Shown here: one piece after another, positions 9,066 to 53,560 of the stretch
How the letters are laid out: every line of letters starts with the position of its first letter
Position numbering within the stretch: position 1 is the first letter of the stretch
Assembly: GCF_006345805.1 (NCBI RefSeq)
Contig: NW_021833619.1
Span: 1-57,941, forward strand
Source of the DNA: Octopus sinensis
Taxonomy: Eukaryota
Direction: 5' to 3'
DNA: 57,941 nucleotides
Translations under genes and position numbers: made by a program
The notes under the pieces: generated by a model
What the model saw: only the letters and a program-made list of their open reading frames with translations
Database searches by the model: none
Told to the model about the DNA's origin: nothing

Positions 9066-9119
9066 TTATGTGTGTATGTGTGTGTGTGTGTGTATACATA
9101 TATGTATATATATATAGGA

Positions 9120-9316
9120 TAAACCGTTAGCCACTACACCATTTTTTCTCTCCTTGTTTCTCTCCTTGTTTTTTTCTGTGTCCCTTTCTGTTGAAGAGCG
9201 TAAGCTCGAAACGTAAAACGTAAAAGACTTTTCCTATTCCTGAGCGTTATACTAATACATCTGTTTGTTTTGTACACCACCTGTCTTCGTCTTTTGCTTT
9301 TTTCGTAAACTCTCGC
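9120..9316 (+). mobile_element. pLTR-like repeat, family B, between (TA)n tracts
   Basis: Homologous to 12060-12196 and 14578-14730; carries a minimal HHR-like motif. Confidence 0.7.
9184..9226 (+). ncRNA. Minimal type I HHR-like motif, variant core CUGUUGA
   Basis: cttt-CTGTTGA-a-gagc gtaa gctc-GAAA-cg-TA-aaa, followed by a 7-bp local duplication. Confidence 0.6.
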
Positions 9317-9326
9317 TATATATATG

Positions 9327-9365
<39 letters not shown>

Positions 9366-9727
9366 ACTCTTTTACATATTTCAGTCATTTGACTGCGACC
9401 ATACTGGGGCAACACATCAATCGATGTGCTTATTCTTTGTAAGACTAGTACTTATCCCATCGATTTCATTTTGCCGAACCGCTATGTGGTGGGGATGTAA
9501 ACACACAAACATCGGTTGTCAAGCGATGGTGGAAGACAATCACAGAGGCAAACAAGAAACACATGTATATATATATGTATGTATATATGTCGGGCTTTAT
9601 TCAGTTTCCCTCCACCAGATCCACTCACAAGGCTTTGGTCGGCCCGACGCTATAGTAGAAGGCATCTGCCCAAGGTGCCATGCATGTAGTTGAAGCAAGA
9701 TTCTTACCACACAGCCACACTTACGCC
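9366..9727 (-). mobile_element. tRNA-derived SINE with CORE-like domain (family S2)
   Basis: Reverse complement of the 34606-34994 family. Confidence 0.8.
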
Positions 9728-10214
9728 TATAGATACATCCATACATAGATTAATTAATCGATTGATTGAATGATTGATAGACAGACAGTCCATTAACAGT
9801 CGATATCCACTGCAGATTTGAAATGTCTTCGATCAAAGCATGACAAGTGAATTTTTCTCCTTCTCTAATATTTGCTCCCATCTGGAGTAGTTTATCCGGC
9901 TGTCGATTTGTAATCTGTTTCCCCTTTGTTTTACACTCACAATTTCAATCGGGTCTTACTCAGTCTAAGCCTTCTGCGATGCAAATTTGAGAAGCATTTT
10001 GGCATCGAGAATCTTGAAGACAGTAGTTTCGCTCACCCAATATTGCTTTGATACGGAAGTGCTTGGGTTTGTGTAAGAATGTTAGTTGCCTTTTGTGAAA
10101 ATCCTTAACGAAAATTTACTTCCATAAACAAGCAACATATTAAAACTGATAAATTCATTCAGGAATTTCATTCGCCATCATAGGCTTCTCGTTCAGAATC
10201 TTCAGACGTGCATC

Positions 10215-10283
<69 letters not shown>

Positions 10284-11257
10284 GTAAATGTCGAACGACG
10301 AGAATGAGTGCTCAACACCGCACTGGTGAATAGGATTTCTGTATTTGTGTATTAAGGTTACTCTTGGTTTCATGTTCTGAAAATATCTTGATAACTTAAC
10401 AAATTTTCAAGCCGACTACATGGAAGAATGGTGTTCGTCTCCATTTTGGATGAAAACGTCAGTTTTCGATATAGTTTCCATCTACACCACTCCATATGTG
10501 GGTGTACGGGTATGTGTTTCCACAGATGTTTATATTCCTAATATCTCCTCTGCAAGAAATAACGCATATATTTTGCAAGGAAATCAAGGTTGACGGCATG
10601 AATTATTAAAGACGCTATATCCTTTAAAGAGAAATCTTATGAATCAAACCCTGATCTTTCGATTTCCTCAATTCCTGGCCAAATCAAGTACGCAGTCAAT
10701 TTAGATACCATCAGATTCCTTCTTTCTATATATATATATACGTCAGATTCATTTTTCTACACCTCACCTACAGCATTGTCTATGTAATACCTCTTCAGTT
10801 GCAATCTGGTTTTCAATTAAGCATCGCGAACCATTGTCACCTTGTGTTCATACATTGGATTCTTCCTAGTTATTCAACCAACTGCTAAACACTTTGCGCT
10901 ATGTTGAAATTATAGAATATAAATTAATGGCTCTAAAGTGATACCATGTCTGTTGCTTCTTTATTCGCGTCTTCTTGCTATATATTTTTTGTATACATAA
11001 ATATATACATAGCATACAATCCGACGATACTTCAAAGTCACTGTCAACAACATTCTTGTTTAAGAAGAAAAAATTCGTACGCTCTAAAGGTATCTAGTAA
11101 CGATCAGATAAACGTAAAATTATTTTTATTAAAACTGAACATAAAAAGAAACATTAATACACACACACACATACATAAGTATATATGTATATACTCTTAT
11201 ATATATACATATATATAAATGTATGTATGAATGCATGTGCGTATATATATATACGTA

Positions 11258-11335
<78 letters not shown>

Positions 11336-11338
11336 CTA

Positions 11339-11386
<48 letters not shown>

Positions 11387-11993
11387 TCATTGCAGCTATA
11401 CATGAATGTTGGCTTCTTGACGTGGAAAAATTGTATGTATTCATAGATGCTCTCCTGAGATACACTTCTAACCACACCAATAAGATCTAACAATGTTTGA
11501 TCGTCAGTGTAACATCGTTGGATGTAAGCCGTTTGCTTGATATTCATATTACAAAACGAAAAACTGGATTTCATCTATAAAGCCATACAAACACCTATGA
11601 TAAAGTAATTGTTCGTCATGGAAAAATTCAAAATACCAACGACTGATTAAAGGAAAAAGTTTTACATTTCCTGAGTTTTTTTAGGTCGGCTTAGAAAGAA
11701 ATATTTTTAAAGGTCTTCAATGTGAAATTATTCAAGTTATTTTCTTGAACTCCTTAATTTGAGAATTCTTCATTCAAGCTTTGTTAGAATTTCCTGACCG
11801 TTAAAACAAGTCGTTTTGCAAGTTGAAAATTTTGATTCGATCTTTGGTCTTCTTGATCAGTAAACAATCGTAAATTCTGTATAGGTCACCTATGATTTAT
11901 TTGACAGCTATTAACTGTCTGGTAGATATTCACAAATGCATGTAATATATATACATGTGTACATATTGATGTGAATGAATATATGATGAAAAA

Positions 11994-12043
<50 letters not shown>

Positions 12044-12133
12044 TCGTTTCATCATAGCGAAACGTTAATAACTACACATTGTTTCCCTCTCTCCGTTTTT
12101 GTCGATCCGACACCATATTTCTTCCTCTCAATC

Positions 12134-12169
12134 CTTTCTGTCGAATAGCGTAGGTTCGAAACGTCAAAG
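12134..12169 (+). ncRNA. Minimal type I HHR-like motif, variant core CUGUCGA
   Basis: cttt-CTGTCGA-a-tagc gtag gttc-GAAA-cg-TC-aaag. Confidence 0.55.
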
Positions 12170-12223
12170 ATTTTTCCATTCTTCCAGCGTTAATTTTATA
12201 TATATATATATATGAAATTAACG

Positions 12224-12264
<41 letters not shown>

Positions 12265-12302
12265 ATATTATATATATATATATATATAGACACACATACA
12301 TA

Positions 12303-12535
12303 CCTATTTCTTTATTACCCACAAGGGGCTAAACATAGAGGGGACAAACAAGGACAGACATAGGTATTAAGTCGATTACACCGACCCCAGTGCGTAACTG
12401 GTACTTAATTTATCGACCCCGAAAGGATGAAAGGGAAAGTCGACCTCGGCGGAATTTGAACTCACAACGTTGCGACAGACGAAATACCGCTAAGCGTTTC
12501 GGCCGGCGTGCTAACGTTTCTGCCAGCTCACCGCC
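12303..12535 (-). mobile_element. tRNA-derived SINE, family S1 (full length)
   Basis: Pol III-like head with B-box gagttcaaattcc and central gtcgactttgcctttcatcctttcggggtcgataaattaagtacc domain; many copies in the window. Confidence 0.9.
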
Positions 12536-14249
12536 CTCACAGACACATACCATATATATATTCATCCATGTGCGTATGCGCTGGAATTTTTATGCATCTT
12601 ACGTAGCTGAAGGTCCTGCTTTTCCTATATAGCATCCAATAACTTTCGTAGTTAGAAAATTTAAACAGCTTCATTTTATTTGTCAAAAGAATTCGGCTGT
12701 GGTATAGAATATGAGAAAAAGTATATAAAATAACACGGAAGTATATCGTAAAATATAATAAATAAGATGAAAATAATACGTAAAGAAATGTAGGAACGAG
12801 CGATGGAATGAATGAAAAACGAATGAATGTCTGAATGACCGCAAGAAAGAATTGTCTTAGAAATCTTGGTTCAATGGAATGTTTTAAAATGAACCATTGT
12901 GTTTACCAAATTCCAATATCAAAATCGTCTGAACATTACGGTGTTCATAACAGAATGCATTAAGCCATGAGAAGTTTTCTAATATCATAAAAAAAATGAA
13001 CAATATAATTTTTCTTTTAAATATATTCACCCATTTTTGCAGGAAGTCTACGCTAAAAAGATGCGGATAAAAGATGCTGATTTTGACGGAGATGGTGACG
13101 TGGTCGATGATGGTAATGGCAAGGAGATGGTGATAGTGGGCGATTATTTGTATTCTTGGTCGACTGTTCATATGGCAGAGTTGAAGAGGAAGTTGGAATG
13201 AAGGGTGATTTTTGGTTTTACATTTGTCTTCTTACGAAGTTGTTTTGTTTGTGTGTGTGTACGTATGATTCTTTATAGCTTTCTCTTATGGTATTTTTCA
13301 TTTGTTTTTCTCTCTGAAATATAGATTTTTTTTTTATTTTTGAGATTTTTTTTTGTCTTCATTGAGTGAGTTAGTAGAGCTTTGTTGGAAACTAACAGCA
13401 GCTGAAATGCCAAGAAGGAAAAGTAATAAAATTTAAGAAGTCAAAACTGGTGAAAGAAAATAACCAGAGAAAGATGGAAGGGTATCGAAAGTAAACATCT
13501 ACGAAAGTATAAAGAAAATAATGAATAAAAGAAGAAATAAAACAAAGGAAAAATAAACGAAAATTACAAAACAGACAAATGACTGACAAAGTATAGTTTG
13601 TATAATTTAAGGAGGACTATAGGTAGATAATCACGTGTCACTTCGAGAAAAAGTATTGTTAATTGCCTGTGAGAAGTCAAAGAGTTTTTGACTCCAGACC
13701 AAAATTTATTCTAAATGACGATAAACATATAACATTTTTACGGGTATAAACATTTATAGCTTTTCCTTGGTCGTGCTGAAACAAGAAATGTAAAAATATG
13801 GTAGAATAACTTTTAAAATAAATACTTCGATTCTTGTTAAAACCAAAAAATTCATAGATGAATATTTCAGATCAGGAACTCATTTAACAATAAATTATAA
13901 TGTAACATTGCACAAAAATTGAAAATTACATTTGAGTGTTATCCAATTACACCTTACATGTCTTATATTTATTTTTGTCGGATTCATAGAATAGTGAACT
14001 TGTACAACAGACTGAAGGTTTTGTTTGTTTTATGTAGCACATTATGAATGCATTATCCTCAATGTTGATATACGCAATGGCTTATATATCCGCATATCAG
14101 TCTAATGAGTGCCGCAGGGCAAATTTCTAAGACTTTGTAATACTTATGTTGCTTCTAAGATAATATAGACACGCGCGCGCACACACATGTATGTATATAT
14201 TTAATATATACACAGCTGCACGGTGGAACTTGCCAAGTTAAAAATAAAA

Positions 14250-14575
14250 CCTCATTGAGTATTTCCAGAAGATATGCAACAAAGGTGTTGTCCCATAAGG
14301 TTCAAAATATCTCTCCCCATAAAGCAACAAATGCTGTTGCAGCAACCTTCGTGGTTTGTAAAACCTTCTAGAATCATGTTCAACAGGATCATTCTTACCT
14401 TACGGAAACATGTTGCCTGAATCACAATGCGATTTTCGTAGCAATCGAGAAATATTTTATACAGTATTCACTTCCCCTCGATTACAGTAGAGGGCTAGAG
14501 AGTAGAATTAGATCATGTGTATGATCCATGATGATTTAAGAGAATCTTTTTATATAGTAGATTACGATTTGCACT
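14250..14575 (+). mobile_element. Decayed RTE-clade LINE reverse transcriptase fragment
   Basis: MLPESQCDFRSNR...VFTSPRLQ*RARE*N...DLRESFYIVD matches the RTE pattern LPESQCGFR...RQLQEKCREQ...DLxKAFDxV. Confidence 0.75.
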
Positions 14576-14605
14576 GATTTTCTCTCCCTGTTTCTTTCTG
14601 TGTTC

Positions 14606-14641
14606 CTATCTGTGGAAGAGCGTAGGCTCGAAACTTTAAAG
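14606..14641 (+). ncRNA. Minimal type I HHR-like motif, variant core CUGUGGA (decayed)
   Basis: ctat-CTGTGGA-a-gagc gtag gctc-GAAA-ct-TT-aaag; stems I and III mutated. Confidence 0.45.
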
Positions 14642-14737
14642 ACTTTTTCATTTCCCAAGCGTTATGCTAATACATCTGTTTGTTGTCTACACCACTTGTC
14701 TACGTCTTTTTTTTTTGTGAATACTCCTCTTAAATAT

Positions 14738-21864: not shown

Positions 21865-22298
21865 GCGAGCTGGCAAAATCGTTAGCACGCCGGGCGAAAT
21901 GCTTAGCAGTATTTCGTCTGCCGCTCCGTTCTGAGTTCAGATTCCGCCGAGGTCGACTTTGCTTTTCATCCTTTCGGGATCGATAAATTAAGTACCAGTT
22001 ACGCACTGGGATCGATATATTCGACTTTATTCGTTTGTCTGTCCTTGTTTGTCCCCTCTGTGTTTAGCCCCTTGTGGGCAATAAAGAAATAAGAAGCATT
22101 AGCACGCCGGGCGAAATGCTTAGCAGTATTTCGTCTGCCGTTACGTTCTGAGTTCAAATTCCGCCGAGGTCGACTTTGCCGTTCATCCTATCGGGGTCGA
22201 TAAATTAAGTACCAGTTGCGCACTAGGGTCGATATAATCGACTTAATCCGTTTGTCCCCTCTGTATGTTTAGCCCCTTGTGGGTAGTAAAGAAATAGG
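21865..22298 (+). mobile_element. Two tandem S1 SINEs
   Basis: Copies at 21865-22091 and 22099-22298. Confidence 0.9.
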
Positions 22299-23318
22299 GA
22301 TATATTCTTACAATTTAAATTGATATAAGATTACGCAGTAACAGAAATTATTACAATTTCAATAAGTGGTATTTTCTTCAAGTTATGTAGCCACAGTAAA
22401 CTTGACGAACATTAACAAGAAATATGTCTTCGAAACAACCATATTCGTCAACAAAAGATATATCCGTTTATAAAAGTGGGTTCCATAGTTAAGTGTAATG
22501 GGATCTTAAACGGGGATACCTTAACTTTTGCAGTAAGATTGTTATACTAGACATCCCGTGTTTAAGTTTCAAATTTGGTGACGCTCGACAAATATGTAAA
22601 AATGTTCTTTTTAGATATTAGAATAGATTTCTTATATATAGATTCGTTTGAAGATTTTAGAGAAGTGCTGTGTTTTGGGAATATGTAAGTCTATTAACTT
22701 CAAAATACGCTGATTATAATTGCGTAAAAATCTTAATTAACCAGAGCTTTATATTTTATTTGCCAAATATTTCAAAACCTCGTATCTGTTGACTTCATTT
22801 TGTTAATTTTTTATTCGTTAAATAATCTATTTCAGACTAAAATTTCTTGCAGTATTTTTACATTATTTGGAATATTATTCAAACAAGCATCATCGTATAA
22901 GATTGAGTAAACGAATGTCAATATTCTTGTGAATATAATTTATTATGTCGTGTAGGCGAGAGCTATTTTTGATTTAATATTTTGGAGGTCTCGTGCGATT
23001 TTCTATAAAGAAGAATATTTTCTAGCGTTTACATTCAATAATCTTAATAACACTATGTGTCTAAGATTAAAATCTAAATATAATTGCTTGTAAGATCCAA
23101 TAATATTTCAGTCTCTAGACTACGCCGTTGCTGGAGCATCATATTGCTAGGTTACATTTAATTATATAGAGCAGATCAATTAGTCGGTTATTATAATTAT
23201 TGATTTTTGTTTGCTTTTAATGCAACTAATGAATCAAAAGCAGGAAGCCTTTACACATTTTTTATGAGAATCAAACTGCTGTGCTTACACACACACATAG
23301 AGGCACGCACGCACGCAG

Positions 23319-23357
<39 letters not shown>

Positions 23358-23394
23358 GATGTGTGCGTTTATGTATGTATTTATGTATATAATT

Positions 23395-23810
23395 TATTTC
23401 ATTATTACCCACAAGGGGCTAAACATACAGAGGACAAACAAGGACAGACAGACGGATTAAGGCGATTATATAGACCCCAGTTCGTAACTGCTACTTAATT
23501 TATCGACCCCGAAAGGATGAAAGGCAAAGTCGACCTCGGCGGAATTTAAACTCACAACGTAACGATAGACGAAATACCTATTTCTTTACTATCCACAAGA
23601 GGCTAAGCACAGAGAGGACAAACAAGGACAGACAAACGGATTAAGTCGATTATATCGACTCCAGTGCGTAACTGCTACTTAATTTATCGACCCCGAAAGG
23701 ATGAAAGGCAAAGTCGACCTCGGCGGAATTTGAACTCAGAACGTAACGGCAGACGAAATACCGCTAAGCATTTCGCCAGCCGTGCTAACGTTTATGCCAG
23801 CTCGCCGCCT
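23395..23810 (-). mobile_element. S1 SINE partial dimer
   Basis: Full copy followed by a second body joined through the shared gaaatac junction. Confidence 0.9.
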
Positions 23811-24211
23811 TGTATGTATGTATATAACGTCGTGACATCGATGGGTGCTTAATATTGTAGCCGTGGACACGATTTGAACTTACACTCCGCAGTCTTTACC
23901 GAGGATATATAGAGAGATTTATAAGAGAGTGAAACAAGAAGAGAAAATATTCAGAATATGAACACTTATGTACAAGTATAGAGATATTTATATATGTACA
24001 GAATAAATAAATTTGCAAGCAACCGTAAGAGTACATGCAACCATAAGAGAAGGTATATAAAGATTGCCATAATACTAGCCTCCATCGCCATGGAGGATAT
24101 ATAAAATATCTATATGCTTATTACATGAGGTAGCTTCTGAATATTTTCATTTTTCGTTTCTCTCTTTACATAACTCTATATATATATTTACATATGTGCA
24201 TTTATGTATAT

Positions 24212-29065: not shown

Positions 29066-29470
29066 GCCGGTTCTGAGTTCAAATTCCGCCGAGGTCGACT
29101 TTGCCATTCAGCCTTTCGGGGTTGATAAATTAGGTACCAGTCGCGTACTGGGGTCGATCTAATAGACTCGCCCAGTCCCCCTCCCCCAGAATTTCGGGCC
29201 TAGTGCCTGGAGTAAAAAATAATATATTTATTTATTCAGGGCGCCGAGCCTTAAAAATCGTTAGCGCGCCGGGCGAAATGCTTAGGGTGGTAGTTCGTCT
29301 GTCGCTGCTTTCTGAGTTCAAATTCCGCCGAGATTGACTTTGTCTTTCATCCTGTCGGGGTCCATTAAATAAGTACGAGTTACGCACTGAGGTCAATGTA
29401 ATCGACTTAATCCCTTTGTCTTGTCTTTGTTCGATCCCTCTATGTTTAGCCCCCGGTGGGGGATAAAGAA
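29066..29470 (+). mobile_element. Two S1-family SINEs (partial and full)
   Basis: Shared central domain with different tails. Confidence 0.85.
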
Positions 29471-29593
29471 ATAAATATAATTGGCGATATATTGAAGTTG
29501 CATAATGACTCAGTGTCCCGATCAGCATTATAAAATATTATCGCATTCGAATCTTATTATATATCTTTAAAATTGACAGTAACTGTTGTCAGC

Positions 29594-30231: not shown

Positions 30232-30812
30232 TAATTATTGTATACAGTGCTCAGGTGCACCACAACTTGTCAAAAGTGCGTATAAAGTATATGCAGTAAA
30301 GTACAAATGTCTGGCAAGTGAACAGTGTATGAGTCAGATACATGCTTGCGTGTGTATGGAGGGGAGGAAATCAGGTGTAGTGTTGGCGAATCTCAGGAAT
30401 CATGGAAGTTTTGAAGGATGCAGTGCTCCGACAACTAACAACCAATGCCGGGAGAATGTTCCATACTTCAGCAACTCTTGGCGTGAAAAAATGTTTCCGA
30501 AAGTCATGGGAGTTGTGCTGTTTTCTGACTTTGTCCACGGGTGTTAGACAGGTGGAGTTTGAAAAGGTGCTCAGAGTTATTCTTTGTAAGATGGTTAATA
30601 ATTTTATGGGTGTCTGTCAAGTCAGCTGCCAGACGACGGAGTTTCACTGTGTCCATATCCAGGGAAGTAAGGCGTTCAGAATATGGCAACTTCCTGATGG
30701 AGGGTATTCTCTTGGTTGCACGTCGCTGAACGGTTTCCAGACGATTAATATCCTGGGCAAGATAGGGGTTCCAGACCGGTGATGCAAATTTCAGGTGAGG
30801 CTGCGTGTACGA
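30232..30812 (-). mobile_element. CR1-clade LINE 3' fragment (RT C-terminus and UTR)
   Basis: PHLKFASPVWNPYLAQDINRLETVQRRATKRIP...RRLAADL...FFTPRVAEVWNILP. Confidence 0.9.
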
Positions 30813-31321
30813 TTTTATAATGATCAAACTACGCTTAATTCCCCTATTACGTTTCGTGACCCGCAATAATCTTATCTGTAACAAATAATAATTGGCGAGG
30901 CCAAAGATGTGCCATGATATATACGAGTAGTTATATGTACTGCTAGTTAGGCGGTTTGGAAGCTGTGGACAAGGATGGATTGCGTTTGTGTATAGGAGCG
31001 AATATAAAACGTTGAACAGCATTGATTGGGTCTTCCTCTCGCATACCCTGTTACGGTGTAATTAGAGTCTTCTTTTACTCTCCATTTATTGAAGGCTAGC
31101 ACCCATTCCTTCGGGAACTTTTCCCGGACCGCTTGTTTACGTGGACGTTAACAAACCAACACAGTTTGTCAAGCGGTGAGATGTACCATGACACACACAC
31201 ACACATATATATATATATATGAATTTATATATGGTCGAGACTTCAAAGTCATCTAACACTGCGCTTCGTGTAAAAATGTGTATTAAATACGTACAGTGGA
31301 AAAAGAATTTAATTTTCCAAT

Positions 31322-32388: not shown

Positions 32389-33869
32389 CGTAGGTACATG
32401 CGTACATATTTACATACATAGATCCAGACATACATACATATATATTTGTGTATGTATATGTTCTGGTTTTAATTTCACACCAAATCAAATATAGTTGCAT
32501 TGAAATTTCAAATAGTTAATCACGTATTTATATATACATATATATGTTAGTATGTATGTATGTATACATATATTCCAGTTTATTCTTAATGCTACAGCTA
32601 ACACGCTATCGACAACTAAACCGGCAATCAGCAAACGTGTATGATCAGGAGGATGGCTTTGATTCAACACCCTGAAAAAAGAATAACAAAACATGTCACG
32701 GAACGAATGAACGCAATAAAATCAATTTCCGTCTAAAAGATGGAAGTCAGAGAACCTCTAGTCTTTGTTCAGCATCTGTCTTGGAGAAGAAATCCCATGA
32801 TGTAACATCTACGATTCTGCATCCAATGATGTAGACTTGTTCTTCCCTTGGGCAAATGTGAAGCTTTTTTAAGGGGTGACATAGGTTCTCTAGAAAACAT
32901 TTCTTCGTTTTAAGAAATCTTCAGCCGTTGATCCTTGATTTGTAATATTTTTATGTCCAGAAAGAACAACATACTAAAACAACTAAATGAAATGCTTGTA
33001 TCATGATAATTACATATATTAGCTTGACACAGCAGTGTTCAGGTTTATTCATTTTCAATGCAGATTGATATAGACACATGCATTCGTAATATTTAGCATC
33101 AATATAACTTTAGCGTGCAGTTTACTCGACGCCTTCATTGATAGTTGGATTTGAATAACTAGAAATAACTACATGTGCATGAAATTGCTTAGGACATTTT
33201 TGGTACAACTTCAAGATTTTAAGAGATAAAAAAATATTTTTAGCAAGAGAATGATTCACGATTCTGACATTTATTTTGGTCATCTTCGTTTTCTGTTAAA
33301 CTAGTGACATGTTGTAAAAATTATATAATGAATATGAGGCTTTTACAGAAATTCCATGCTCGCGTCTGATGAGTATAAACGAAAGTCAATACTTAGGATT
33401 TCGCCTTAAAGCGAATTAGCGTAATATATTTATACATAGAAAATATGCCTAAATTATCGACTATACAACATTAAACGTAATATAATAATAATGGCATTAT
33501 AAACAAGCATGCATACATACATGCATAAATATAAGATATACACATAAGCACGAACACACACACATGTATGTATGTGTATGTCTGTATTTATTGGTTGCAT
33601 ACCCGTATCTTTCTAGATGTTATAGTCAAGCCTTGTTTTTGCAAATTATAACGATTAAAATTATTATGTAAATCTGAGCTTCCTGAAACAGCTGTCGATT
33701 TAGGAATTTATATAGTTTCTTACTAGTATTGCGGTTTCTAATGCTGACTTTAAATATATTTTTATGTGACTGTATGTATATGCGTGTGTGCGCACGCGTG
33801 AGTGAGCGTTTGTGAGTGTGAAGCCAAAATGTGTTCGCCTGCATTAATACCAACTTATATATATATATT

Positions 33870-35924: not shown

Positions 35925-36648
35925 GATGTTCGTGCAAAGCCAGCAATTCGGGAAGAAGTTAAGTCCATTGCATAGATCCCAGTGTTTAACGGGTGCTTAT
36001 TTCGTCGACCTCAAAAAAGATGAACGGCAAAGTTGATCTGGGTGGGATTTGATCTCAGAACATGAATTCGGACGAGATGCCGCTAAGCGCTTTGTGTTAA
36101 CGACTGAGCCAGCTCCCCGCCTTAGAATCGGTAGCTACTGTTCTTTTGTTACTAAGCACACTGGTATGAATTTGAACCAATAACAGTAATTTCCAGTAAA
36201 GTAGAACAAATTTGATGGCATGAAGTCACATTAAAAAAGGATTAAAATATTCTTTTCTACTCCAGCCACAAGGCCCCATATTTCTAGGAAGGGGGGCAAT
36301 CGATTAGATCAGCTCCAGTATGTAACTGGTACTTAATTTATCGACCTCGAAAGGATGAAAGGCAAAGTCGACATCGGCGGAATTTGAACTCAGAACGTAA
36401 AAACAAACGAAATTCCTATTTCTTTACTACCCACAAGGGGCTAAACACAGGGAGGATAAACAAGGACAGACAAACGGATTAAGTCGATTATATCGACCCC
36501 AGTGCGTGGCTGGTACTTATTTAATCGACCCGGAAAGGATGAAAGGCAAAGTCGACCTCGGCGGAATTTGAACTCAGAACGTAGCGGCAGACGAAATACC
36601 GCTAAGCATTTCGCCCGGCGTGCTAACGATTTTGCCAGCTCACCGTCT
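35925..36648 (-). mobile_element. Cluster of S1 SINEs (one old copy and a partial dimer)
   Basis: Homology to the other S1 copies. Confidence 0.85.
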
Positions 36649-36856
36649 TAAAAAAAAGGATTAAAATTTGTTTGTTGGGGTTGAGCGTAAGTTAGACATT
36701 AAATATTTGAGGATGAATATCAAATTTTAATGATTCCTATCTTAGAAATTGAAACCTGATGCTTTTGCAAAGGTCCAAAGTTACGGGGAAGTAAACAAAC
36801 CAGTAACGGTTGTCAAACGGTGGTAGGGGCCAAACACAGACACATAGACACACAGG

Positions 36857-46944: not shown

Positions 46945-47200
46945 AAGGCGGCGAGCTGGCAGAAAAGGCGGCGAGCTGGCAGAAACGTTAGCGCGCCGGG
47001 CGAAATTCTTAGCGGTATTTCGTCTGTAATTACGTTGTGAGTTCAAATTCCGCCGAGGTCGAATTTGCCTTTCATCCTTTCGGGGTCGATAAATTAAGTA
47101 CCAGTTACGCACTGGGGTCGATGTAATCGACTTAATACCTATGTCTGTCTTTGTTTGTCCTCTCTATGTTTAGCCCCTTGTGGGTAATAAAGAAATAGGT
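46945..47200 (+). mobile_element. S1 SINE with 20-bp tandem-duplicated head
   Basis: aaggcggcgagctggcagaa twice, then a full body. Confidence 0.9.
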
Positions 47201-48039
47201 ATATATATGTGTGTGTGTGTGTGTGTGTCTGTGTGTGTGTCTGTGTCGTATCTATACGTGAATATATATATATATATGTGGTGTGTGTGTGTGTGTGTGT
47301 AAGTATATATGCATGCTTGTTCGTGTGTATGCATGTTCATACACACACTCACACACACGTATGTATTTATGTGTGTACTCATGAGTATGTGTGTATACTG
47401 TTTCTGCGTCACTTTTAAAACTTGCACAAACAAACTTGCCGCAAAATAATTTTCCTTTCCCTAATCTTTTCTCCGCAGTCTATATATTTTTCTTCTCTCT
47501 TTATATGATTTTTCTCTCCCAATTTTGCATATCCCGATTGTTATCTGAAACGAGCCTGTTTTTGCGCATGTCTAATAATCTATATATTTGGGACTTCTTG
47601 CGGAAAAAAAACAAAACAATGATAAATATAAGAATACTATTCTTATCTTGTCGCGTATGTATTCACGTAATAATATATATGCGAAATTATGTCTGCTGCG
47701 TACTCTAGTAGAATTCTTAAACCCATTGGGAGTTGCCACATTTTGTGAAATCTCGTAACACATCTCGCTCATAACATAACACAACAATATTTAATAGATT
47801 GATAAAGGAATGGTTGAACGAAGATCTATTTAGATGTGCACGTTTGTATATGTAATAATGTATTTTCGTTGAGTTGTTTGAGAGATTCGAAATATACAGG
47901 AGAGCAGTGTTTCGTTGGCATGTACTTTTATACACGGTGCGATAAACTAATAACTCTGATATATCTAACGCCATTGTGAATTTTTTCTTTGTTGGTACAA
48001 ACATTTGCATATACATACATACTACATACATACATACAT

Positions 48040-51904: not shown

Positions 51905-52927
51905 ACGTCGTCGCCGTCGTCGTCGTCATTGTTATCACTAGCAACATCATCATGATCATCATGATCATCATCCTCGTGGTCGACGTCGTCATCATCATCA
52001 TCATCATCATTATCGTGGTCGTCGTCGTCATCATCATCATCATCATCATCATTATCGTGGTCGTCGTCGTCGTCATCATCATCATCATCATCATTATCGT
52101 GGTCGTCGTCGTCGTCATCATCATCATCATCATCATTATCGTGGTCGTCGTCGTCGTCATCATCATCATCATCATCATCATCGTCATCGTCATCATCATC
52201 ATCATCATCATCATCATCTCATCGTCGTCATCCTCGTAGTCTTGTTCATCATCATCATCATCACCGCCATCGTCATCGCAATCATAATCATCATCACCAT
52301 CGTCGTTGTCGTCTTCGTCTTAATCATGATCATCGTCATCATCCTCATCAACACCACCAACACCACCACCACCACCACCACCACCACCATTATCATCATC
52401 ATTGTCATCATTCTTCTCATAATCATCATAGTCGTTGTCGTTGTCATAATCATCATCATCATCATCACCACCACCACCACCACCTCCACCACCACCACGA
52501 CTATCATCGTTTTTCTCACTATCATCATCATCATCATCATCGTCGTTGTCATTATCATCATCATCATTATCATCATCATCATCATCATCCCCATCGTCAA
52601 CATCAGCAGCGGTAGCTGCCTCCTCAGCAATTCCTGCCTCATCATAATTAACATCACCAGCATCATCATTACTATCAGTAACATTATCAGTGTTACCAAC
52701 TTCAACATCAGCATTTAAATTCTTCCCCATCTTCCTCATCCCCATCTTCCTCATCCTCATCACCACCATCACAAACATCATCGCTCTCTCCCACTCGTTA
52801 ACATTTTTACTATTATCATCGCATTCATCCATAATCACCCGTTTTAATCTCCATCATCATTATGGCTATTCACATCATCACCAACATTATTATCTCTATA
52901 ATCTTCACACTCACCTTAATCATCATC

Positions 52928-52958
<31 letters not shown>

Positions 52959-53560
52959 CCACCGTCATCATCATCATCTTCATCATTATCGCATCATCAA
53001 GATCGTCGTCATCTTTGGCATCGTCATCATCATCATCATCATCATCACCACCACCACCACCACCACCACCACTACCACCATAATCGTCATCATCATCCTC
53101 ATATCGTCATCATCATCATCATCATCGTCGCCATATACATGATGATCAGCATCAGCATCACCATCATCATTATTATCACCGTCATCATCATCATCGTCGT
53201 CATTAACATCATCATAATCATCACATCATCATCACCATCATCGTCGTCATCGTCATCATTACCATCTTCGCTATCATCGTTCATCGTCATTGTCATCATC
53301 ATCATCATCGTCGTCATCGTCGTCATCATCATCATCACCATCATTATCATCATCATCATCATCAGCTGCTGCTGCTGCAGCAACAGAATCAGCATCATCA
53401 GCGTGATCCGCCCTCTCCGTCCTCCCCTCCATAATATCATCGCCGCCATCATCGTCTTCAACGCCACGCTCATAAACATCATCACTCTCCTCTACCACTC
53501 CTACAACCTCCACCACCACCTCATCATCATCATCATCATCATCATCAATATCGCCATAAC
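51905..53560. repeat. 1.65-kb compound trinucleotide tract (ATC/GTC/ACC)n with ~40-bp higher-order units
   Basis: attatcgtggtc(gtc)n(atc)n repeated about 5 times at 51973-52180. Confidence 0.95.

Follow-up and report, generated by a model that had tools for sequence, protein, structure and literature searches.

The window analysed here, 57,941 nt long, is a whole 58-kb contig (NW_021833619.1) of the 2.72-Gb, microsatellite-rich genome of the animal Octopus sinensis (assembly GCF_006345805.1). Its plus strand carries three copies of a 36-nt motif, a predicted minimal hammerhead ribozyme with U at core position 6 (CUGUNGA), beginning at 9184, 12134 and 14606, where a preliminary description had placed them. 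No other match to the motif occurs in the window at up to nine substitutions, and 20 shuffled windows searched with the same 36 nt gave no match. Each copy lies inside a remnant of the pseudo-long terminal repeat (pLTR) of a Penelope-like element (PLE):

9117..9318, plus strand: 5′-truncated pLTR (3′ end) of a Penelope-like element, N7=A/H17=A subfamily, flanked by (TA)n runs on both sides; left edge set by eye.
9184..9226, plus strand: predicted minimal type I hammerhead with U6 core; private N7=T, loop GTAA and a 7-nt duplication whose end is H17.
12088..12190, plus strand: older pLTR remnant, N7=C/H17=C subfamily (nhmmer E 2e-12); edges approximate, with a TA run shortening the 3′ end.
12134..12169, plus strand: predicted minimal hammerhead with U6 core; G10.1-C11.1 pair lost, G-U in stem II.
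14574..14732, plus strand: pLTR remnant, N7=G/H17=U subfamily (nhmmer E 8e-35; cluster S16).
14606..14641, plus strand: predicted minimal hammerhead with U6 core; mismatch in stem I, palindrome replaced by ACTT.

The likeness between these copies continues past the motif, into a pyrimidine-rich stretch upstream and through ∼90 nt downstream that end in (TA)n. The pLTR at 9117..9318 is matched by nhmmer over 9143-9318 (E 7.9e-39), is 76% identical to each pLTR of a long element elsewhere in the genome (L349) and belongs to cluster S17. Its flanks place it in the N7=A subfamily, and the T at N7 of the 9184 copy is probably a private mutation. The copies at 14606 (N7=G, H17=U) and 12134 (N7=C, H17=C) carry the states of their own subfamilies; the remnant around the latter clusters with L054, L193 and L048, an assignment made by eye for the motif copy, which its short 3′ end excluded from flank clustering. 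A search for reverse transcriptase (RT) or GIY-YIG remnants in the window found none, so each of the three inserted independently and at a different time, not as part of one tandem. All three are decayed remnants and probably inactive. The preliminary description had fitted a single pattern to them; none fits it exactly (1, 2 and 2 substitutions, respectively). It had correctly recognized that they differ at N7 (T, C and G) and H17 (A, C and T) and have U6 and an extra A in common. The reduction of stem III to an ACGT palindrome, which it ascribed to every copy, holds for two and is lost at 14606. It overlooked the motif's identity as the ribozyme in the pLTRs of a Penelope-like element.

Tracing shared upstream sequence from the motif led to two coding frames immediately 5′ of it, one for GIY-YIG and one for RT. 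In one long copy (L061), RT (PF00078, E 6.7e-8) and GIY-YIG (PF01541, E 0.0013, under the cut-off) both lie upstream of the motif, and in L349 a single 746-aa frame holds RT motifs, a C-x4-CxxC linker and GIY-YIG. A second, 5′ motif, lying ∼0.95-1.0 kb before the search anchor, is present in 19 of the 30 long copies; it follows 3′ untranslated region (UTR) sequence, i.e. the repeats form a partial tandem. All 10 of these 19 copies that were examined carry two U6 motifs, 3.99-4.55 kb apart, flanking a broken open reading frame (ORF). The motif thus sits in both pLTRs, and a single ORF, RT with C-terminal GIY-YIG and partial-tandem pLTRs together reproduce the organization of endonuclease-bearing (EN+) Penelope-like elements. 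That the host is such an element is almost certain. By its linker and microsatellite targeting it is assigned on sequence to the Neptune type, which has a CX2-5CxxC linker before GIY-YIG and targets microsatellites, here seen as (TA)n ends. The linker and GIY-YIG layout is given for both Neptune and Nematis elements (PMC8557442). A non-LTR retrozyme, consisting of short non-coding tandem repeats that each bear a type I hammerhead, was considered and rejected: the copies are truncated pieces of a coding element scattered through the genome, and none of the tandem arrays in the window contains the motif. In several long copies, including L324, a short TA run is kept at the tandem junction, between the pLTR end and a ∼620-nt 5′ UTR. 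Inverted pairs of element ends also occur (L084/L085, L143).

Across the genome, a 26-nt pattern in which positions 6 and 7 and one loop base were left free has 14,460 exact matches, against 0 for the reversed control. Position 6 is U in 13,934 of them (96.4%) and another base in 526, which bears out the earlier suggestion of a family with a fixed non-canonical core. Among 100 of the 526 listed, C predominates, the outcome that decay of U would produce. Copies picked by their downstream flank alone agree: T6 is found in 60 of 60 that align over the motif (of 71; truncated copies account for a few spurious alignments) and, after clustering, in 64 of the 67 that are flank-anchored. U6 motifs with a different second base in stem II number 472, and the 100 listed resemble decayed copies from this lineage. 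A sample of 49 random 10-kb stretches held four copies, too few for statistics.

A canonical-core pattern has 6,139 genome matches, most of them from an A6 sister lineage (e.g. L151-L180). The two lineages share stem II, the ACGU palindrome, the extra A, a homologous 3′ flank and the (TA)n end. They differ in loop 2, a fixed 4-nt GUAG among U6 elements but 3 nt, variable and of several variants in the A6 sister. The closing pair of stem I differs as well: C-G for U6 elements, G-C in the main sister family with A6. Three A6 copies form a small, old cluster that adjoins the U6 lineage in the flank tree, which makes U6 the derived state. The A6 sister lineage is a natural control for the U6 lineage. 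Small PLE hammerhead variants that cleave as dimers were reportedly described by Lunse, Weinberg and Breaker in 2017, in the largest survey of this class, to judge from their title and a passage in a review. Literature listings for hammerhead A6U, CUGUNGA, and octopus hammerhead, Penelope or Neptune gave no natural A6U family, the alignments of Lunse 2017 lying outside this comparison.

The motif, apart from position 6, has kept the shape of a hammerhead while its surroundings changed. Copies were clustered on flank columns only, which took in 253 of 323 matches, the others being too short or duplicate; 11 U6 clusters of 3-33 copies were kept, and a mixed cluster of four and a singleton were dropped. 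Divergence of copies from their subfamily consensus runs from 17% down to 3% across the 11 clusters. Over the flank tree, 34 of the 36 motif sites show no change; the exceptions are N7, with six changes, and H17, with four (C, A and U; never G). Over the same tree, 58 of 108 flank sites vary, with 95 changes, compared with none of the 34 motif sites (Fisher 6e-10), and without the slippage-prone upstream flank 32 of 80 flank sites vary (Fisher 1.6e-6). The pair that changes is exactly the two sites that are free in hammerhead chemistry, which has a chance of 1 in 630 among 36 sites. This was the outcome of a check set beforehand, position-specific conservation, in which N7 and H17 proved the sole motif sites differing between subfamilies. 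G is never seen at H17 in the three window copies or the subfamily consensuses, and genome-wide just 110 of the 14,460 matches have it there.

Within inserted copies the picture is different. Private decay in the 67 flank-anchored copies amounts to 6.2% in the motif and 5.9% in the near flanks; because inserted copies decay equally in both, the constraint acted on master elements and not on inserted copies. It is very probable, on this comparative evidence, that master elements kept a hammerhead-shaped constraint, i.e. selection on the motif, after A6U arose. Many loci were chosen through motif patterns, and the 67 flank-picked copies agree with the remainder; the consensus is uncertain for small clusters. 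N7 changes outnumber those at any of the 108 flank sites (nominal Poisson p 3e-4), an excess to be treated as a lead, as site rates differ and CpG is involved.

What was conserved corresponds closely to a published class of ribozymes. Cervera and De la Pena (2014; PMC4209133) described minimal hammerheads in the pLTRs of PLEs that are without helix III and palindromic at 15.2-16.2, with a conserved additional base between positions 9 and 10.1. In vitro these have low activity even with A6, and only as multimers (PMC4209133). All 11 octopus subfamily consensuses keep C3, U4, G5, N7, G8 and A9, G12, A13 and A14, A15.1-U16.1 and H17 (C/A/U); all have 4-bp helices I and II, G10.1-C11.1 and A9.1, and all have the ACGU palindrome without helix III. 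Shared with the published motif are thus a U-rich flank, a short helix I, CUG-N-N-GA, the extra 9.1 base and G10.1-C11.1, as well as GAAA, the palindromic 15.2-16.2 without helix III, NUH, residence in both pLTRs and thousands of solo truncated copies (PMC4209133). For one such motif, from an Acropora Neptune element, the 3′ half is nearly identical to that of the U6 motif (PMC4209133). Three of the four features that the preliminary description had flagged as special (the palindrome, the extra base and the dimer mode) are published features of the class.

Only position 6 departs from the published consensus (PMC4209133). The octopus consensuses lack the class's A there, whereas Fig. S3 of that paper has A6 in all 56 representatives, the authors' descriptor demanded A6, and the sole core change reported there is U3-A8 (PMC4209133). 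With every tested feature of the class present except A6, the U6 lineage is, on sequence, a variant of the PLE minimal hammerhead and not a plain member. Neither mark of a canonical type I hammerhead, a match to the Rfam model or a helix III of its own, is found in the motif: a young copy had no Rfam match at E ≤10, and no hammerhead was among the 150 of 219 window matches listed. Natural substitution at core position 6 has a precedent in the hammerhead of phage Bcep176, with A6C and low but detectable cleavage (PMC3088659; PMC7151607). There, however, the base is C and the ribozyme a full monomeric fold at a single phage locus, in contrast to the lineage-wide, dimeric minimal motif of the U6 elements (PMC3088659; PMC7151607).

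Does this motif still cut? We lean somewhat towards its being catalytic and, if a touch less firmly, towards slow cleavage by the U6 lineage as a predicted dimer ribozyme, probably helped by protein. In such a scheme, the partial-tandem transcript would bring two motifs together, ACGU-ACGU pairing between them would form helix III, and G8 and G12 would catalyse cleavage after H17. U6 would damp cutting in two ways: the contact made by A6 would be lost, and U6 would pair with A15.1, closing the monomer into a hairpin. Damped cutting would leave most RNA uncut as the template for reverse transcription. Synthesis would start ∼100 nt downstream and continue through the motif, and the element's own protein would probably assist cleavage. 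Inserted copies do end ∼90-100 nt downstream of the cut site with the motif read through, so that the template would be uncut or rejoined RNA and slow cutting would be tolerable or even useful. U6 is expected to slow cutting, given the low activity of A6C, the weakness of CUGA-turn mutants and the pairing of U6 in the monomer. The swap of the stem I closing pair between the main A6 sister family and the U6 lineage was counted in favour of this scheme. A bolder version holds that at least 11 subfamily waves spread on a U6 hammerhead that cleaves in vivo through compensation by the GUAG loop and protein, with U6 as a brake and N7 tuning the rate; taken whole it is tentative and rather unlikely.

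A number of results weigh against continued cleavage. A full pairwise scan of another hammerhead found CUGA-turn mutants low, without rescue, except for the C3-G8 swap (PMC9901934), and in a mouse-gut ribozyme at 0.3 mM Mg2+ A6C drops the rate from 0.3 to 3.6e-6 per min (PMC7151607). The PLE minimal hammerheads are slow even with A6 (PMC4209133). Folding predicts G5-C15.2/U6-A15.1 pairing with a probability of 0.37-0.98 in five of six U6 copies (0 in the sixth), whereas G5-C15.2 has a probability of ≤0.07 in folded A6 and C6 copies. The constancy of U6 itself concerns one site, and 46% of the time a flank site is likewise unchanged. Invariance extends to loop 2 and position 9.1, beyond catalytic need, so something besides catalysis may act. 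Finally, catalytic mutants of the PLE hammerhead of Anolis still insert in vitro (PMC11167929).

Ends of truncated copies belong in the same balance. Among 5′ truncations joined to (TA)n over C1 to C3:60 Mb, hand counts give 8 at the cut site; four further TA sites have 13, 11, 4 and 2 (binomial p 0.5). An apparent pile-up at the cut site, seen in 100 rows listed (51 distinct loci, hand count) with ∼17 starting after H17 versus 6 at the loop TA, was rejected once set against downstream TA controls; TA microhomology explains it. Truncation ends of the A6 sister have a similar spread, as judged without formal counting, and among 11 long copies that lack the 5′ motif none clearly starts at the cut site (L311 has a printed offset that stems from misalignment). 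Contigs of four runs that cover the stretch have H17 as the sole position inside the motif with another letter; they were not used, as N7 variation was unlisted too and their status as RNA was guessed. Dimers folded to minimum energy do not adopt the double hammerhead (-28.0 kcal/mol versus -12.9 kcal/mol for it in L002), core tertiary energy being ignored in such folding. Three truncated copies (C2:131812463, C3:62152663 and C5:60782212) have an 11-nt duplication that begins at the predicted cut site or immediately downstream of it, which could reflect slippage on a GTT microhomology or re-priming by RT at the cut end.

The strongest alternative is that the motif no longer cuts and that its hammerhead-shaped structure or sequence was kept for recognition by the RT-EN protein or a promoter factor, with U6 locking the hairpin. 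We regard this as possible, if doubtful. The U6-dependent closed hairpin, the invariance of loop 2 and position 9.1 and the missing truncation footprint all suit it. In the Poseidon PLE of Anolis, moreover, insertion in vitro does not need cleavage, and reads ending at the cut site are absent (PMC11167929), and Naiads proliferate without a canonical hammerhead (PMC8557442). Nonetheless, the freedom of N7 and H17 alone, with H17 avoiding G, fits catalysis better than hairpin pairing, and C3, A14 and U16.1 are fixed though unpaired or weakly paired in the hairpin. The Anolis system is instructive for both readings. Frangieh et al. (2024; PMC11167929) found that its hammerhead cleaved only with the element's own protein and that C3G or G8C abolishes cleavage. 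Like the octopus element it has a pLTR hammerhead, reverse transcription that begins downstream and AT-rich targets; it differs in belonging to another PLE clade and in that cleavage is demonstrated there, and A6U goes unmentioned in the parts of the report drawn on (PMC11167929). Since cutting depends on protein and is dispensable for insertion in vitro, this behaviour supports protein help and also a non-catalytic role.

A second alternative casts U6 as a metal switch, by which the ribozyme would be active in Mn2+ and almost inactive in Mg2+, as given for A6C, which yields Mn2+ preference in two hammerheads (PMC7151607). It is improbable, as the effect is shown for C6 only and no reason is seen for Mn2+ control of a retrotransposon. 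Slightly less probable still is that A6U killed the ribozyme once and left a neutral passenger, uniform by common descent: U6 is indeed restricted to one lineage and a changed core is usually taken to mean loss of function (PMC3088659), but the contrast between flank and motif sites on the same ladder largely refutes it.

If compensated cleavage in vivo is real, the octopus lineage would supply an A6U ribozyme that nature has replicated en masse, and the A6 sister lineage would serve as its control. The broader question is why PLEs retain hammerheads that cleave weakly in vitro and are dispensable for insertion in the sole reconstituted system. With a core base altered and the other constrained sites kept, beside an A6 sister and natural A6 copies of matching background, the lineage offers matched RNAs on whether PLE hammerheads must cut. 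Should U6 cut, the core consensus found in nature becomes broader, and searches whose descriptors demand CUGA have missed whole families; should it not, the fold has a non-catalytic job.

Other features of the window were noted as well. An isolated CUGAUGA...GAAA GUC stretch at 33366-33392 (plus strand), with a 2-bp stem II and unconvincing stems I and III, has no Rfam hammerhead match and a folding z of -0.6, and is probably due to chance. By self-BLAST, an abundant short interspersed repeat recurs at 12290-12537, 21865-22305, 23386-23826, 29070-29479, 36241-36649 and 46965-47212; we take it to resemble the short interspersed elements of octopus. On the minus strand, a 185-aa frame at 30504-31061 looks by eye like the C-terminal portion of a long interspersed element RT. 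A degenerate (CAT)n array of 1.4 kb occupies 51945-53364.

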